Shown here piece after piece: positions 3,367 through 13,818 of a stretch of DNA of 15,035 nucleotides. The stretch's first letter is position 1. The number at the start of each line of letters is the position of its first letter. Position numbers and translations under genes: made by a program. The notes under the pieces are model-generated. The model ran no database searches. It was not told the origin of the DNA and saw only the letters and a program-made list of their open reading frames with translations. Source of the stretch: a virus (taxonomy: Duplodnaviria > Heunggongvirae > Uroviricota > Caudoviricetes); the IMG/VR virus record IMGVR_UViG_2565956611_000003, positions 1-15,035 of that record, one strand, 5' to 3'.

Positions 3367-3807
3367 TCAGTCATCATCGCCATACATCCAGTTGTTACGG
3401 TGTGCCGCCCGTTCTTCCTGCTCGCGATACATGCCCGCTTTACGGTTTGCTTTCGTGGCTGGATCTTCTCGTGTCGTCTTACGGTTGTGGCACGTCTGGC
3501 ACAATGCCTGGTGATTCCACTCAGGCCAGAAGAGAACATCACCGCCGCCATTGATGGGAATGATGTGATCCACCACAAGAGCTGGCGTATAAATCCCCTT
3601 AGCCAGACAACGCACGCATAACGGGTTTTTGCTCAGGTACAGGGCGCGGTATTTGTCCCACTGTCGGGAATACCCGCGCGCGCGGCGGTGTCCCCGTCTG
3701 GCATCCTCTGCACGCCATGCAGCCCGCCTGTGCTCTTCACACTTGCCGGACTTCACGCGCTTATTACAGCCAGGCTCAGTGCATCGCCTTAATGGTTGCC
3801 ACGGCAT
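3367..3807 (-). CDS. HNH endonuclease (terminase-associated, phage packaging type)
   Basis: 146-aa ORF with CxxC...DHIIPINGGG...N...CQTCHNRKT, a classic HNH zinc-finger nuclease motif. ATG at 3807 overlaps the connector stop by 1 nt. Located immediately upstream of terS. Confidence 0.85.
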   Translation of the reverse strand: MPWQPLRRCTEPGCNKRVKSGKCEEHRRAAWRAEDARRGHRRARGYSRQWDKYRALYLSKNPLCVRCLAKGIYTPALVVDHIIPINGGGDVLFWPEWNHQALCQTCHNRKTTREDPATKANRKAGMYREQEERAAHRNNWMYGDDD

Positions 3808-4109
3808 CAGTACACCCCTACGTCACGATAAACTGACCAGAGCGCAGAAATAGCCATAGGCAGTTCCGAGTGCTCCACTGGTGAAACCGCTTCCCGGTTC
3901 TCGTACAGGAAAGCGATGTACATCAGGCAACCAACACGCATTGCCGGGGTAAATTCCAGCCCGTCTTCAAAACGTTTCCCGATATGCTTCTGGCAGGCTT
4001 CCAGCGCCGCATCGGTATACATTTTCAGAAGTTCGCCTTCACCGGATAAATCATCATCAAGTCGAAGATGTGCCCTGACTTCATCAGGTGTAATTCTGGC
4101 TTCACTCAT
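3807..4109 (-). CDS. Head-tail connector / adaptor protein, gp6-like
   Basis: 101 aa from ATG 4109 (MSEARITPDEVRAHLRLDDD...LLKMYTDAALEACQKHIGKRF...), matching the gp6-like head-tail connector pattern. SD GGGAGA lies in the portal 3' end; 8-nt overlap with the portal stop. The ORF-track GTG start at 4196 would sit deep inside the portal gene. Confidence 0.75.
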   Translation of the reverse strand: MSEARITPDEVRAHLRLDDDLSGEGELLKMYTDAALEACQKHIGKRFEDGLEFTPAMRVGCLMYIAFLYENREAVSPVEHSELPMAISALWSVYRDVGVY

Positions 4110-5316
4110 CTTTTCTCCCTTTAATTTCCACAGTCTGTTTCCATGCCTGGCTGAACTCATCACCACCTTCACGCGGCGGCATACCCTCACGCTCACGGGC
4201 TTCGTTCGGATTCATGATCCCGTTCTTAATCCCTTTCTCATACGTGGCATAACGTTCGGTGGGTGTGGCGCGTAATAAATCGGCTGAATCAAACTCAACC
4301 AGATAACGGGTACCAGGTACGGGAGAAGCCACCAGCAAAGCGGCCTTGATTTGCTGTTCGAAGTTCGCCAGCCACGGGCGCATTGTCATGGTCAGAAACG
4401 CGCGGCTTGCCTCGCTGAAATTGCTGTAGGTGCTGTTGCTGTATTCCTGCAGAAAAATAGGCGATACGTTGAACATGCGGGCGATGTCTTCAATGGAGAA
4501 GCGACGGGAGGCCAGCCATTCCGCATCCTGGTTACTCATTCCCAGTTGCCTGTAATCCATGCCCCCTTCAAGGATTGGCGTTTTTCCGGCATTTTTCGCC
4601 CCCTTGTAGCGTTCCAGAGCATCCAATGCCTGTTTACCTTTCACGCCGTCCAGCCATTCGCCTGACGTGATAATCCCTGCCGCCATCATGCCATCTTTCA
4701 TAATGCTGGCTCCGTGACGCTGTTGAGCAAGGCCAAGCCCCAGCGCCTCACGGCAAATCGTGACGGGGGAACGCCCCAGAAAGCCATCATCCGAGGCATA
4801 GCGGAGATGCAAAACTTCTTCCTGTAAATACGTGCGCACCGTTCCTGTACAGGGTTCGGTGATGGTATAGCGGTATTTGTGTGCGCCTGTGCGTTCCGGT
4901 ACAACACACCCCGGCGCATAAGGATGAAGTGATTTTGGCTGCCCGTCCTGCCCCCACTCAATAACCGCATAGGCGTTACCGTTCAGCAGGCAGTGACGCA
5001 TCATTGTGCGTTTAAACTGGTAAGGTGTCTGGCACGAATTAGGCTGCTCATTCAGCAGAATATCTACTGGGTGACTGTCCAGCCATTCCCGCGCCTCCCT
5101 GCCCTTGTCATTACGTACCAGATACAGATAACACGGCATCGTGGCCACCGCCTCAGCGATGACAGAAACCGCATTCATCACTGCAGGCAATGATTCAGCC
5201 GTCCCGGCAGAAACATATTCTCCGGATCCGGTATTCGGTACGCCGGACAGCGCCAGAAAATCATCAATGGACAGGTTACGCTGCTCGCTTTTTTTACGAC
5301 TAAAAGGCCACCACAT
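4102..5316 (-). CDS. Portal protein, HK97 family
   Basis: 405 aa from ATG 5316 (MWWPFSRKKSEQRNLSIDDFLAL...), 1 nt after the protease stop. Size and position between protease and connector fit a portal. The ORF-track TTG start at 5406 would overlap the protease gene by about 90 nt. Confidence 0.85.
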   Translation of the reverse strand: MWWPFSRKKSEQRNLSIDDFLALSGVPNTGSGEYVSAGTAESLPAVMNAVSVIAEAVATMPCYLYLVRNDKGREAREWLDSHPVDILLNEQPNSCQTPYQFKRTMMRHCLLNGNAYAVIEWGQDGQPKSLHPYAPGCVVPERTGAHKYRYTITEPCTGTVRTYLQEEVLHLRYASDDGFLGRSPVTICREALGLGLAQQRHGASIMKDGMMAAGIITSGEWLDGVKGKQALDALERYKGAKNAGKTPILEGGMDYRQLGMSNQDAEWLASRRFSIEDIARMFNVSPIFLQEYSNSTYSNFSEASRAFLTMTMRPWLANFEQQIKAALLVASPVPGTRYLVEFDSADLLRATPTERYATYEKGIKNGIMNPNEAREREGMPPREGGDEFSQAWKQTVEIKGRKDE

Positions 5317-7388: not shown

Positions 7389-7895
7389 ATGAATTTAAGC
7401 GCAATGGTATATCCTGATACTTTCATAATTAATGGCGAATCATTCAGAGGTAAAAGAAACGCAAAAGAAAACAAGGTATTAATTCCATATACAAATGAAC
7501 CGGAAGTAACTATTGGTCAACACATTATCCAGCGTGTCGGTAAAAACGAGATAAATCTAAAAATTATAGATATGAAGTTGCTTCCCAATGGAACCCGCAG
7601 ACAGGGAACCAATCATCCAAATATGTTGACTCTCTATATTGAAAATATCACGGGAAATGAACATATGACGCCAACTAAAAGTAATACATTTAACATTGGT
7701 TCAATTAGTGGTGATCAAGTGCAGATAGGTGAGCATAACCATATGCTGGTAAACATCAGCATCACTGAACTGGTTGAAAAAGTCGCTAAATCGGGGGATG
7801 TACAAGCCAAATCAGTATTAAAGCAGTTACTGGAAAACAGTACCGTTGCCAGCATTGTTGGGGCTGGCGCAAGTGCCCTAATAGGCTTACTGTAA
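7389..7895 (+). CDS. Hypothetical protein (168 aa), AT-rich cargo gene with hydrophobic C-terminal segment
   Basis: ATG 7389 with AAGGA 7 nt upstream. Visibly AT-rich compared with flanking genes. The C-terminus (STVASIVGAGASALIGLL) is hydrophobic and Gly/Ala-rich. Stand-alone plus-strand gene followed by a strong terminator. No family recognised. Confidence 0.6.
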   Translation: MNLSAMVYPDTFIINGESFRGKRNAKENKVLIPYTNEPEVTIGQHIIQRVGKNEINLKIIDMKLLPNGTRRQGTNHPNMLTLYIENITGNEHMTPTKSNTFNIGSISGDQVQIGEHNHMLVNISITELVEKVAKSGDVQAKSVLKQLLENSTVASIVGAGASALIGLL

Positions 7896-11270: not shown

Positions 11271-11591
11271 TTATCCCCGATTTGAATCAGTATTCGCTTT
11301 CTTTATAGCATTTAATGCATCTGTGGCATTTTCAATGGTGCACCGTAACGAAATATCAAAATGTCCAAGCATTGCCAGTAACAAACCGATATTACCCATA
11401 TCAATGCGCATGGCCTTTTCGTCATAGTCCTCATTTTCTGACGCATGCCACATCAGGCTACCAATTGACGCAACAGCCATTGATATATTGTCAGTAGCCC
11501 CATCCGCAGCGGAATAAACCTTTTTAGCAATATCATGCTCACAGTTAAAATGCGGATTAATCAGGTACTGGTAATTTGACATATCAGGCAT
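11271..11591 (-). CDS. Hypothetical protein (106 aa)
   Basis: ATG at 11591 preceded by a G7 run acting as SD; 6-nt gap to the next ORF. No family recognised. Confidence 0.5.
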   Translation of the reverse strand: MPDMSNYQYLINPHFNCEHDIAKKVYSAADGATDNISMAVASIGSLMWHASENEDYDEKAMRIDMGNIGLLLAMLGHFDISLRCTIENATDALNAIKKANTDSNRG

Positions 11592-11787
11592 GGCACCCCC
11601 CCTGACGAATACGGGCGGCGAATACCATCACGCAGCCAGCCGGGGATTGCTGGCGTGCTTCCTGTTCGCTGCTGGCCTCAATGGTAATCACGCGCGGTTG
11701 TGCCGTGCTCAGGGCGATAAAACGCCAGATGTATTTATTCAGGTTGTACGAGTCCCGCCCTTGCGGGTGTATGGTATGATTTCTCAT
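11584..11787 (-). CDS. Hypothetical small protein (67 aa from the internal ATG; ORF-track version starts at a TTG at 11877)
   Basis: ATG at 11787 with GAGG SD. First gene after the leftward promoter. The 3' end contains the G7 tract and overlaps the next gene by 8 nt; it may be the N-terminal part of a frameshifted longer gene. Confidence 0.4.
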   Translation of the reverse strand: MRNHTIHPQGRDSYNLNKYIWRFIALSTAQPRVITIEASSEQEARQQSPAGCVMVFAARIRQGGCHA

Positions 11788-11885
11788 AGCTGCCTCGATA
11801 CTCTCGTTATCGTTGGTGGTTAGACGCCCCGTATGTGTTTCCGGCACTGCGGGGCGTTGCTCTTTGTATTTCAACAATCCTTTCG

Positions 11886-11963
11886 GTGTGTTTCATGTTA
11901 TGAGCGCATGAAACACACGTCAAGGCTTTTTGTATTTCTTTTTTTGTGTATACTGAAACACAC
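11886..11963. promoter_or_regulatory. Divergent promoter/operator region with three TGAAACACAC sites
   Basis: Perfect 12-bp inverted repeat GTGTGTTTCATG (11886-11897) / CATGAAACACAC (11907-11918) overlaps a leftward TTGACG-17-TAACAT promoter (-35 at 11923-11918, -10 at 11900-11895, minus strand). A third TGAAACACAC (11954-11963) overlaps a rightward TATACT -10 (11949-11954) upstream of the 11985 gene. Confidence 0.5.
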
Positions 11964-11984
11964 CGATGATTAGGAGTTTCAGAA

Positions 11985-12290
11985 ATGGCAACGGCTAACA
12001 AAAACGCAAAATCACAACTGACAACTGTCAGAGTCCCACTAGATGTTATGCAAGGGATGGAATCCGTTAAGCTGGACGGCGAAAGCAATGCCGGATTTAT
12101 CGTAACCGCCATGCGCGGAGAAATAGCCCGCCGCCAAGCAGAAGGCAGCGGAGAAAATCCCCTTGTGTCGTCACTGGATGCCCTGGCTAAGGTCGAACAA
12201 ATCGGCATCAAAGCAGCGGAAGAAATCGGGCAGCTTGTCACCGTTGCACGCGAAGAACTCCAGCGTCGCAAGACCAAAGAACCAGAGTAA
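11985..12290 (+). CDS. Putative small DNA-binding regulator (101 aa; possible ribbon-helix-helix type)
   Basis: ATG 11985 with AGGAG 8 nt upstream; typical enterobacterial codon usage. N-terminal QLTTVRVPLDVMQGM resembles a beta-strand-then-helix RHH start; this is a weak inference. Convergent with alpA. Confidence 0.55.
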   Translation: MATANKNAKSQLTTVRVPLDVMQGMESVKLDGESNAGFIVTAMRGEIARRQAEGSGENPLVSSLDALAKVEQIGIKAAEEIGQLVTVAREELQRRKTKEPE

Positions 12291-12332
12291 TCACCATCAG
12301 CGCCGTGGTGTAAGGTATTACGGCGCATTGCT

Positions 12333-12521
12333 ATGCAGGACAACACAATGACCGATAAAGAATTGACCAAAACATTATCACCGGCACGGAAAAGACGGCG
12401 CAGAAAGATAGAGCATGAATCAGAAAGATTCGCGCCATGTGCTTTTGCTCTTGAGAAATTCCTTAAAGAGCACAGGAAAAAGCTCTCGTTGCAAACCTTG
12501 GAACGAACCAAATCTGACTGA
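12333..12521 (+). CDS. Hypothetical basic small protein (62 aa), doubtful
   Basis: Follows the 101-aa gene and precedes the 12590 terminator; contains an RKRRRRK stretch. Weak SD and several rare codons (AGA, AGG, CGG, ATA). Confidence 0.3.
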   Translation: MQDNTMTDKELTKTLSPARKRRRRKIEHESERFAPCAFALEKFLKEHRKKLSLQTLERTKSD

Positions 12522-12589
12522 TCACATTGCCCACCAGCCGCAAATGTGGCATTGTTGGTGATGCGTTCAAGTTTAGTGTGTATCCATTG

Positions 12590-12618
12590 GCGACCGCCCC
12601 CGGTCGTCTTTGTTTTAT
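12590..12618 (+). terminator. Rho-independent terminator for the plus-strand operon
   Basis: Stem CGACCG (12591-12596), loop CCCC, CGGTCG (12601-12606), followed by TCTTTGTTTT. No U-run on the opposite strand. Confidence 0.6.
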
Positions 12619-12635
12619 ATGTCATATGCTCCCCT

Positions 12636-12860
12636 TTACGCTGCCTTACCTGAATTAACGCGGTCACGGCTTTGCACCCAGTCCATAACTTCGGAAAGCA
12701 ACCAGCCTACAGAACGCCCCCCAAGATTACGGCGAGACGGAAAGCCCCCTTTCTTCTCCAGTTCGTAGCGTGTAGTACGGCTGACGCCTGTTAACTTACG
12801 ACATTCATCCTCACGAATTACGCGATCTGTTAGTGATTGAAATTGTGTATTTTGATTCAT
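12636..12860 (-). CDS. alpA: AlpA-family prophage transcriptional regulator (small HTH excisionase-like activator)
   Basis: 74 aa (MNQNTQFQSLTDRVIREDECRKLTGVSRTTRYELEKKGGFPSRRNLGGRSVGWLLSEVMDWVQ...) matches the AlpA/CP4-57 regulator pattern. ATG at 12860 with GAGGG SD. Position near the integrase is typical. Confidence 0.85.
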   Translation of the reverse strand: MNQNTQFQSLTDRVIREDECRKLTGVSRTTRYELEKKGGFPSRRNLGGRSVGWLLSEVMDWVQSRDRVNSGKAA

Positions 12861-12892
12861 AAAAACACCCTCGAACGTAACCGAACAAGGGC

Positions 12893-12920
12893 ATCTTATT
12901 TACCATAGCAGTTGGTGCAA
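12893..12920 (-). promoter_or_regulatory. Candidate sigma70 promoter for alpA
   Basis: Minus-strand TTGCAC (12920-12915), 16-bp spacer, TAAGAT (12898-12893), about 30 nt upstream of the alpA ATG. Confidence 0.35.
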
Positions 12921-12963: not shown

Positions 12964-13818
12964 TTAATTTTCATTAGATAACATTTTTCTTATTTTTTCT
13001 AAAGAATCGCTGCGCATTATTTTTTCTAAGAAGGGTTTTACAGTCTGAGCAATAGCAAAGGTGTCCTTTTCACCATCAGGATACAAAGATACGGCAAGCA
13101 CCCCTAATGAAATTTTTCTATCTGTAGACAACTCCCAAGATAATAAGTCAATTAATGGGATTATCTTATAATCAATAATTTTACGTCGTATGCTCTCCCA
13201 ACTTCCTGCAATTGGTTTGTCTGGCTCAACAATTGAAAGTTCACTACGCCATTTTGGTAATAGTTTTGTAAACGCTTCAATCAACTCATCATCTCTGTTA
13301 TGTAGTAAGTCAACAGAAACAAGCATATTATCTAATGTATCAGAAAGGAGATTCACTGGTTCACGCATCACAGCCCAAAACATCCCATTATCTTCTGATA
13401 TTAAACTTCCAACCATCTCATTATCTATGATGATTGGTTTATCCTTCCAATATCCTCTTTCCGCAGTCAGTTTATTAATCATTGATATATCAAACCTTGT
13501 TACAGGTTTAATTCCATCATCATAACTTAGCTCAATTAACTTCGGTTGCACTTTATGGTCATATTCTTTTTGTTTATCACAAAACCAATCGTCTTCTTTC
13601 AGCTCTCCAAATGGATCCCCGTAATTATTATGCAACGGGTATTCAGCACCAAACATAAATCCATATTCAGGCATCTCAGAATGTTTCATCGTTAAATCAT
13701 CTTGTCGCCAATATAATTGGCGAAATAGATCTTTATCCGACAAGTTTTCTAGGCAATCATATTTGCCTAAATCAAATGACTTTGGTAAATCTTTTTTACT
13801 ATTTACTTTTTTCGTCAT
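12964..13818 (-). CDS. Hypothetical protein (284 aa), AT-rich cargo gene between integrase and alpA
   Basis: ATG at 13818 overlaps the integrase stop (ATGA) with GAGGG SD. Markedly AT-rich compared with int and alpA. Acidic, soluble-looking protein; no family or catalytic motif recognised. Confidence 0.7.
   Translation of the reverse strand: MTKKVNSKKDLPKSFDLGKYDCLENLSDKDLFRQLYWRQDDLTMKHSEMPEYGFMFGAEYPLHNNYGDPFGELKEDDWFCDKQKEYDHKVQPKLIELSYDDGIKPVTRFDISMINKLTAERGYWKDKPIIIDNEMVGSLISEDNGMFWAVMREPVNLLSDTLDNMLVSVDLLHNRDDELIEAFTKLLPKWRSELSIVEPDKPIAGSWESIRRKIIDYKIIPLIDLLSWELSTDRKISLGVLAVSLYPDGEKDTFAIAQTVKPFLEKIMRSDSLEKIRKMLSNEN

Follow-up and report, generated by a model that had tools for sequence, protein, structure and literature searches.

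The locus described here lies in a 15,035-nucleotide stretch of viral DNA (IMG/VR record IMGVR_UViG_2565956611_000003, referred to in full as the window), between alpA and the replication genes of a phage-satellite island. It is proposed to be the immunity or commitment switch of a capsid-forming phage-inducible chromosomal island (cf-PICI), built on the vis-eta/kil skeleton of phage P4 with a protein repressor, an interpretation whose chances we consider to be even. The candidate repressor is the 101-aa product of ylcI, a plus-strand gene that shares an operon with the small gene orf57 and lies antisense within a long minus-strand open reading frame (ORF), here called the bridge ORF, that begins directly after alpA. 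The major data computed for this proposal were the reality of ylcI as a gene, the ribbon-helix-helix (RHH)-like fold of its product, the operator sites and their co-variation with the protein, the asymmetry of the terminator, the coupled ORF and its maintenance, the Icd-like domain in common with P4 Eta, and the absence of the CI RNA.

An earlier note on this DNA had described a plus-strand mini-operon convergent with alpA, with no terminator shielding it from alpA read-through, and had suggested transcriptional interference between an inducer and a putative repressor. The observation is confirmed: both ORFs were found where the note had placed them, ending at a plus-strand-only terminator. 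The support for the interpretation is partial, and the locus is better viewed as a variant of the P4 eta/kil immunity region with a protein repressor, in a cf-PICI. The bridge ORF, the relation to Icd and P4 eta, and the PICI regulatory zone had been missed.

YlcI and its putative operators

The ylcI gene (11985-12290, plus strand) was assigned to the YlcI/YnfO family from its match to NCBIfam NF041551 (63.2 bits over aa 9-50; cutoff, 30) and from the RefSeq name of an identical protein, "YlcI/YnfO family protein." The homologues number 216 across Enterobacterales, with none in the phage genome collection. Over 14 loci, the ratio of nonsynonymous to synonymous polymorphism (pN/pS) was 0.29 in the gene's own frame. 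The correlated antisense frame gave 0.42, and the remaining four frames gave 0.99-1.69. These values mark ylcI as a real gene, with purifying selection confined to its own frame. The possibility that it is the shadow of a minus-strand gene was rejected on the same value and because the minus-strand ORF is unconstrained outside the overlap. In Xenorhabdus, Photorhabdus, Enterobacter, Serratia, Pantoea, and Phytobacter, the gene invariably points away from the replication operon and converges with alpA/int.

The AlphaFold model of the N-terminal domain consists of an extended segment followed by two helices, with a predicted local distance difference test score (pLDDT) of 87. This is the topology of an RHH monomer, an N-terminal beta-strand and then two helices, and it spans about aa 9-54; the C-terminal part was modeled as one long helix, aa 59-97. 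The earlier note had asked for structure prediction to settle whether the protein has an RHH fold, and the model answers in favor of one. YlcI is put forward as a candidate RHH-like repressor. Sequence comparison gave a weak Pfam match (E = 0.02, which fails the cutoff) to PSK_trans_fac, a family of the RHH antitoxin type, and an hhalign probability of 8% against Arc. In a profile search of the PDB, the C-terminal half of YlcI produced only a weak helix-hairpin-helix (HhH)-like match. This match, of aa 60-97 (window 12162-12275) to the HhH domain of Hef (E = 0.005), is centered on the invariant I73-G74 and is at odds with the single long helix of the AlphaFold model. Short YlcI variants of 59-65 aa that are without the C-terminal region were seen in three E. 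coli islands (L016, L018, and L019).

Exact copies of TGAAACACAC occur at 11886-11895, 11909-11918, and 11954-11963 and nowhere else in the 15-kb window. They define three putative operators, O1 (TCGGTGTGTTTCA, 11883-11895), O2 (CATGAAACACACG, 11907-11919), and O3 (TGAAACACACCGA, 11954-11966), of which O1 and O3 are perfect 13-nt inverted copies of each other. The three sites cover the -10 and -35 elements of the divergent ylcI and icd promoters. O1 is at the -10/+1 boundary of the icd promoter, and O2 overlaps its -35 element and spacer. This promoter-like site of the icd-primase operon (TTGACG-17-TAACAT, 11895-11923, minus strand) was found by promoter scan and lies within the bridge ORF; its hexamers read TTGACG/TAACAT in the related locus L002 and TTGACA/TAAAGT in L005 (10 of 12 positions). 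O3 is at the -10/+1 boundary of the ylcI promoter and abuts its inferred -10 hexamer (TATACT, 11949-11954, plus strand), which was read from the sequence and the alignment and is accompanied by a poor -35 element. The same hexamer reads TATAAT in Xenorhabdus and Photorhabdus.

The assignment of these sites to YlcI comes from a comparison of operators with the YlcI beta-strand in about 90 related loci. Each beta-strand class was found to pair with its own repeat at the same positions. In the 13 genome and 6 E. coli loci, the LTTVRVP class pairs with TGAAACACAC and the SLTARIP class with GTGTAAG/CTTACAC; the (I/V)KNVR(I/V)P class goes with GTGTGTATTTA or GTGTGCATYC, the QINARFP class goes with TGAATCCCA, and further pairs exist. 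In the 80 IMG/VR loci the association was perfect and independent of the AlpA allele. There, KSQLTTVRVP was accompanied by three copies of GAAACACA in 43 loci and by two copies in one more, at AlpA identities of 46-100%, KSQSLTARIP by three to four copies of CTTACA in 17 loci, some with 100% identical AlpA, and KSQMTTIRVP by TGTGAGATAYA. Such co-variation is the pattern expected for a repressor and its operators.

A 14-nt direct repeat, GCTYTTTGTATTTC, flanks the operator cluster at 11859-11872 and 11925-11938. Its TTTGTAT core is kept in Xenorhabdus and Photorhabdus and not in the other operator classes. The repeat may belong to the ylcI promoter or be recognized by a second factor.

The facing transcription units and the bridge ORF

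The second gene of the plus-strand operon, orf57 (12348-12521), is annotated in RefSeq as a hypothetical protein and encodes a small basic protein of 57 aa. The earlier note had treated this ORF as doubtful and had read it as 62 aa from an ATG at 12333. It is probably a real gene, with its start at 12348: that ATG has AGGA 7 nt upstream, the alternative ATG is absent in L017, the core ERFAPCAFALEKFLKE is common to 24 aligned homologues that differ by in-frame indels, and its own frame has the lowest pN/pS (0.35). The gene corresponds to PHROG 21027, annotated as unknown function, and was without a match in Pfam, NCBIfam, or PADLOC. It was found in Escherichia and Shigella only, being absent from the non-Escherichia loci that keep ylcI. 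The hairpin between the two genes (12300-12326, plus strand; -17.7 kcal/mol, z = -1.5, not significant) retains its stem in the alignment of L015-L020 and, having no U tail, is not a terminator.

In the L070 and L059 types, the position between ylcI and alpA that is taken by orf57 in the window is filled by an AT-rich gene convergent with alpA (3651-4187, plus strand, in L070) for a probable membrane protein of 178 aa, and the long ORF there begins just beyond ylcI. No PADLOC match was obtained for the 178-aa protein. The arrangement suggests a cargo slot downstream of ylcI that is expressed together with the repressor. In the window, orf57 is possibly cargo co-transcribed with ylcI, and it and the larger cargo alike may be expressed, along with the repressor, while the island is silent.

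This organization could also be read as an accessory module, either an RHH antitoxin with a small toxin or exclusion or defense cargo, that regulates only itself and is unrelated to induction. The weak PSK_trans_fac match, the order of an RHH gene followed by a small ORF, and the variable cargo downstream of ylcI would all fit such a module. It is given very little chance, because O1 and O2 fall on the -10 and -35 elements of the replication-operon promoter and because the position of ylcI is kept in every genus while orf57 is confined to Escherichia. Furthermore, no defense-system match was found in PADLOC for ylcI, orf57, the DUF6387 gene, a 168-aa ORF of the island, or related cargo, and the conserved toxin-family partner of a type II toxin-antitoxin pair is missing, as orf57 matches nothing in the three databases above and does not accompany ylcI outside Escherichia.

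The operon ends at an intrinsic terminator (12589-12618, plus strand) with a stem at 12589-12608 and the tail UUUGUUUUAU. The folding energy of the hairpin is -16.2 kcal/mol (z = -3.6) when read on the plus strand and -10.5 kcal/mol on the minus strand, where CAAUGGAUAC comes next and a U tract is missing. Because the minus-strand hairpin is weaker and is followed by this sequence, the terminator is deduced to be unidirectional, in agreement with the plus-strand-only terminator of the earlier note. The element is conserved in L017-L020. L005 and L013 have plus-only terminators 3' of ylcI with different compensatory stems and the same tail, TTTGTTTTAT, from which it was concluded that the asymmetry itself is conserved; L002 has one with a different, U-rich tail. 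As for the opposite strand, no terminator-like site was found in the scan between 12636 and 12521, nor were minus-strand terminators found in scans of the corresponding cassette region of L002, L005, and L013. Read-through of the alpA strand across the cassette is proposed below. It gains indirect support by comparison, from the bridge ORF, which is coupled to the alpA stop, covers the cassette from end to end, and stays open in relatives, and from the parallel with P4 eta, translation of which allows upstream transcripts to pass the immunity region (PMC10111431).

The transcript in question would be translated. The bridge ORF (12625-11807, minus strand; 819 nt, 272 codons) starts at ATG 12625, 10 nt past the alpA stop and behind the Shine-Dalgarno sequence AGGGGAG (TAA-AGGGGAGCAT-ATG), and ends with TAA at 11809-11807, 19 nt before the ATG of the Icd-like gene. 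It runs antisense across the terminator, orf57, ylcI, the ylcI promoter, the three operators, and the icd promoter. The probability of its 110 codons outside the plus-strand genes being open is about 0.002-0.003. Equivalent ORFs were found in 11 other loci and 48 distinct IMG/VR cassettes. Open spans in the intact genome loci measure 270-473 codons for the equivalent frame and 13-87 codons for the remaining two minus frames, and for the equivalent frame the probability of being open is 3e-3 to 6e-8 per locus over the 95-258 codons outside plus-strand genes. The corresponding lengths in the IMG/VR cassettes are 190-485 and 25-113 codons. In the majority of genome loci, the start codon overlaps or directly adjoins the stop codon of the preceding minus-strand gene, either alpA or one that intervenes between it and the ORF, in the form TGATG, TAATG, or ATGA, or as TGA/TAA followed by a G-rich Shine-Dalgarno sequence.

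At the protein level, the bridge ORF is without constraint in the relatives: outside the overlap its pN/pS is 0.78, compared to 0.78-0.91 in five control frames. This bears on the possibility that the ORF encodes a functional Eta-like protein, mostly as a fusion with Icd/Kil, on which ylcI and orf57 were overprinted as antisense genes. The frame does continue in frame into the Icd-like gene in 9 of 12 loci, giving one product of 243-400 aa, and in most IMG/VR cassettes; P4, too, produces Eta and Kil from nested frames. Tyrosine is moreover nearly absent from the YlcI family (1 of 2237 residues over 22 members). A Tyr codon after a codon ending in a pyrimidine places a stop in the antisense bridge frame, and the composition of YlcI may accordingly be shaped by the overlap, which keeps that frame open. 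Against a functional product are the control-level pN/pS and the composition of the region outside the overlap, which is rich in S, L, R, and C, together with length differences of more than 100 codons between close relatives. Nor was any family or domain match obtained for the window ORF, including Bro and Phage_ASH, and in the window a stop codon and a frame shift part it from icd. A functional Eta-like protein is considered quite improbable as the full explanation, and it is not exclusive of the proposed switch.

Automated annotation has been confused by this long antisense ORF, with PGAP calling either ylcI or the ORF as pseudogene fragments. Minus-strand fragments labeled "Icd-like incomplete," "hypothetical incomplete," and "BRO-N incomplete" are found in L015 (3494-4438), L018 (1990-2406), and L019 (2075-2330). 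They were dismissed as separate genes, as their translations are the long ORF itself and no Bro-N signal is present in the window. On L015, PGAP omits both a plus-strand RHH gene (3822-3995, 57 aa, weak Arc match) and orf62 (4038-4226).

Several observations weigh against the proposed switch. The ylcI promoter was recognized from its -10 hexamer and no other element, and it was not called in the promoter scan. The operator co-variation may partly reflect linkage, since the sites are less than 100 bp from the 5' end of ylcI, and the IMG/VR loci are close relatives and not independent tests. The claim of the earlier note that no minus-strand terminator follows alpA stands for the interval 12636-12521 and has to be qualified beyond it, for three weak terminator-like hairpins were found on that strand inside ylcI (12152-12127, 12139-12126, and 12031-12018); one of them folds at -25 kcal/mol with the tail CUAUUUCUCC. 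The C/G ratio is about 1, and base composition gave no clear signal for or against Rho. A plus-strand cargo gene parts the ORF from alpA in the L059/L070 types, which make up 26 of the 48 IMG/VR cassettes, and coupling to alpA is thus not universal. The coupling test was positive in only 12 of the 48 cassettes, being a crude test that was based on ATG and misses non-ATG starts. Finally, the long ORF is absent in L007 and L011, both apparently decayed islands in which alpA and int are not nearby; L011 also has transposase-like ORFs.

Some of these points would favor a purely trans-acting AlpA. On this account, alpA transcripts are stopped in the cassette by Rho or by weak hairpins, AlpA activates the icd promoter or counters YlcI, and the ORF is a decaying Eta/Bro relic hit by the insertion of an RHH cassette. 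The minus-strand hairpins inside ylcI agree with it, as do the L059/L070 types, which presumably still work, the missing family match of the ORF, and the published role of AlpA as a DNA-binding activator of its own promoter (PMC6092414). A relic would gain stops, yet 95-258 non-genic codons remain open in loci of six genera, and the frame stays open despite large changes in length and no amino acid constraint. The start of the ORF is coupled to the upstream stop in the window and most genome loci. In addition, neither a TGAAACACAC-like site nor any other site was found to be common to the alpA promoter region and the icd promoter. The trans-only account was therefore deemed unlikely.

Comparison with P4 and other switches

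The closest counterpart of the locus is the immunity region of phage P4. There, eta is coupled to the alpA homologue and has a constitutive promoter within it; in the words of the source, "Eta translation prevents termination" (PMC10111431). Eta is the long product and Kil the short product of nested frames (PMC10111431). P4 Eta was found to consist of Phage_ASH (E = 3.8e-23) and an Icd-like domain at aa 147-194 (NF033153, 73 bits), and the first gene of the replication operon in the window (11584-11787, minus strand) matches the same NF033153 model at 69.6 bits; this Icd-like gene starts at ATG 11787 with its own GAGG upstream. Both regions have an alpA homologue (vis/orf88 in P4) followed by a long ORF coupled to it, an Icd-like/Kil domain at the end of that ORF (P4) or directly after it (window), and a promoter inside the ORF, the icd promoter being the analogue of P4 PLE. 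Replication genes follow downstream in both, with primases about 50% identical. By position, the bridge ORF would be the analogue of P4 eta, from which it differs in having no Phage_ASH or Bro domain.

The two regions part in the nature of the immunity factor. In P4, immunity is due to a processed RNA from the same strand that causes premature termination, whereas in the window an operon for a putative protein repressor lies antisense in the ORF and brings its own promoter, operators, and terminator. The Rfam families C4 and isrK match P4 at 74.9 and 60.8 bits. At the gathering threshold, neither was found in the window or in ten ylcI-type loci, and relaxing the cutoff to E <= 10 brought up no match in the window. 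An immunity RNA of the P4/P1 type in the icd leader was excluded on this ground, as Rfam returned nothing in the window while P4 CI and seqA were detected. Judged from sequence, the locus appears to be a variant of the P4 eta/kil immunity region with a protein repressor in place of the CI RNA.

A conserved hairpin (11823-11858, minus strand), followed by the conserved CUCUAACCA, does lie where the icd leader coincides with the 3' end of the ORF. It is kept in 13 loci, with compensatory changes in three pairs, and matches neither C4 nor isrK of Rfam. Read on the plus strand, it is terminator-like, with a folding energy of -25.8 kcal/mol and a U-rich tail.

Elements of the locus recall three other systems. 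The immI region of phage P22 has small RHH repressors, Arc and Mnt, closely spaced opposed promoters, Pant and Pmnt, and the antisense RNA sar. It resembles the proposed switch in placing RHH repressors on oppositely oriented promoters and in the use of antisense transcription in control, and Mnt, like YlcI, has a C-terminal helical region, which in Mnt is the oligomerization region. It differs in the regulated genes and is not known to be embedded in a translated antisense ORF, and the sequence similarity to Arc is weak. The pR/pL promoters of coliphage 186 and Pe/Pc of P2 form convergent-promoter switches that work by transcriptional interference. In a switch of this type, transcription elongating from the stronger lytic promoter would pass over the repressor promoter and suppress it. 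As in the window, the lytic and repressor units face each other and the repressor unit has no protecting terminator. In the window, about 900 bp separate the promoters, compared with about 60 bp in these switches; the terminator of its repressor unit protects the activator gene, and the invading transcript is predicted to be translated. In the Staphylococcus aureus pathogenicity islands (SaPI) and other Gram-positive PICIs, the repressor Stl/Rpr is divergent from the replication/excision operon and silences the island (PMC6092414). The divergent position is common to YlcI, whereas Stl belongs to an unrelated protein family and is inactivated by binding a helper-phage protein.

For Gram-negative PICIs, a "Bro zone" between alpA and the replication genes has been described (Williams and colleagues). 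AlpA, the activator or excisionase-like master inducer of these islands, is turned on by the helper phage, and induction depends on it (EcCICFT073, EcCIEDL933, and EcCIMP1; PMC6092414; bioRxiv 10.1101/2022.09.08.507074). The islands have been described as unidirectional, with the repressor not identified (PMC6092414). They have the order int, alpA, variable zone, replication, and late genes in common with the window, which differs in its counter-oriented cassette for a putative RHH repressor between alpA and the replication genes. No mention of an RHH protein was found in the PICI papers, and no description of this cassette arrangement was found, in the literature searched.

Island context and proposed switch

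The window is a complete phage-satellite island, the RefSeq copy of which is flanked by thiM and rcnR. E. coli SMS-3-5 and many further strains match it at 100% identity over positions 11800-12900. In the RefSeq annotation, the early minus-strand genes are int, DUF6387, alpA, the Icd-like gene, two small genes, primase, and ssb, after which come genes for an HK97-type capsid, protease, portal, connector, HNH, and the small and large terminase subunits. The island therefore has int, alpA, and primase and its own capsid-to-terminase set, without tail genes. From this gene set, which matches that described for cf-PICIs (bioRxiv 10.1101/2022.09.08.507074), it is identified as an E. coli cf-PICI. 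alpA itself (12636-12860, minus strand) is an AlpA-type helix-turn-helix gene in RefSeq and matches Pfam Phage_AlpA at an E value of 4.8e-16; no promoter-like site was found upstream of it in the consensus scan.

The only plus-strand genes in the island are ylcI, orf57, and the ORF for a hypothetical 168-aa protein (7389-7895), which sits between ssb and the capsid gene. The DUF6387 gene (12964-13818) and int overlap at the stop by 4 nt (13815-13818), and therefore int, DUF6387, and possibly alpA may share one transcript. The Rfam int-alpA RNA motif (RF02996) was observed between int and alpA in Photorhabdus (L003, 7326-7394) and Pantoea (L012, 7770-7838) and was not found in the window at the gathering threshold. 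Homologues of ylcI are also carried by three island-sized plasmid records, NZ_CP148328.1 (10.8 kb), CP018459.1 (17 kb), and NZ_CP142848.1 (10.5 kb); these probably represent excised satellites in circular form, assembled as if they were plasmids.

The following sequence of events is proposed for the switch. In the quiescent island, YlcI would be made from its own weak promoter and would occupy the three TGAAACACAC operators, two of which would shut the icd-primase promoter while the third would limit its own synthesis. The ylcI-orf57 transcript would end at the plus-only terminator and so would never run antisense into alpA. Upon induction, the helper phage would turn on alpA, and AlpA would then activate its own promoter, a self-amplification published for other PICIs (EcCICFT073, EcCIEDL933, and EcCIMP1). 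The alpA transcripts, meeting no terminator, would cross orf57, ylcI, and the ylcI promoter into icd-primase. The coupled 272-codon ORF would keep ribosomes on the read-through RNA, as in P4 eta, so that Rho could not terminate it, and the replication operon would be expressed independently of the repressed icd promoter. The same transcription would cut repressor synthesis by collision, promoter occlusion, and antisense pairing, and with repressor synthesis lowered, induction would become self-reinforcing. The binding of YlcI to DNA, the read-through, the protection from Rho, and the interference are what we infer from the evidence above. The arrangement has the look of a switch between silence and induction that works one way only, and the main purpose of the read-through may be the bypass of the repressed promoter.

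A wider proposal is offered tentatively, and we would sooner expect it to fail than to hold. In a large class of Gram-negative PICIs, the master repressor that has been missing would be a YlcI-type RHH protein, with its gene antisense in a translated bridge ORF. AlpA-driven, ribosome-protected read-through would both bypass the repressed promoter and silence the repressor, and the ORF would be selected for its translation and not for its product.

The silencing of Gram-negative PICIs has been an open point, for which the locus gives a concrete candidate repressor, with operators and specificity classes that can be swapped by experiment. The arrangement is common, as ylcI-like DNA is present in 711 of 5426 complete E. 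coli genomes, and knowledge of the off-switch would be useful because cf-PICIs are in development as delivery vehicles. Mechanistically, the locus is linked to P4 eta/kil, with a protein in place of an RNA immunity factor. It would also be a natural case of a long ORF apparently kept only for translation, with a whole operon on its antisense strand, and as such it bears on Rho polarity, overlapping genes, and genome annotation.

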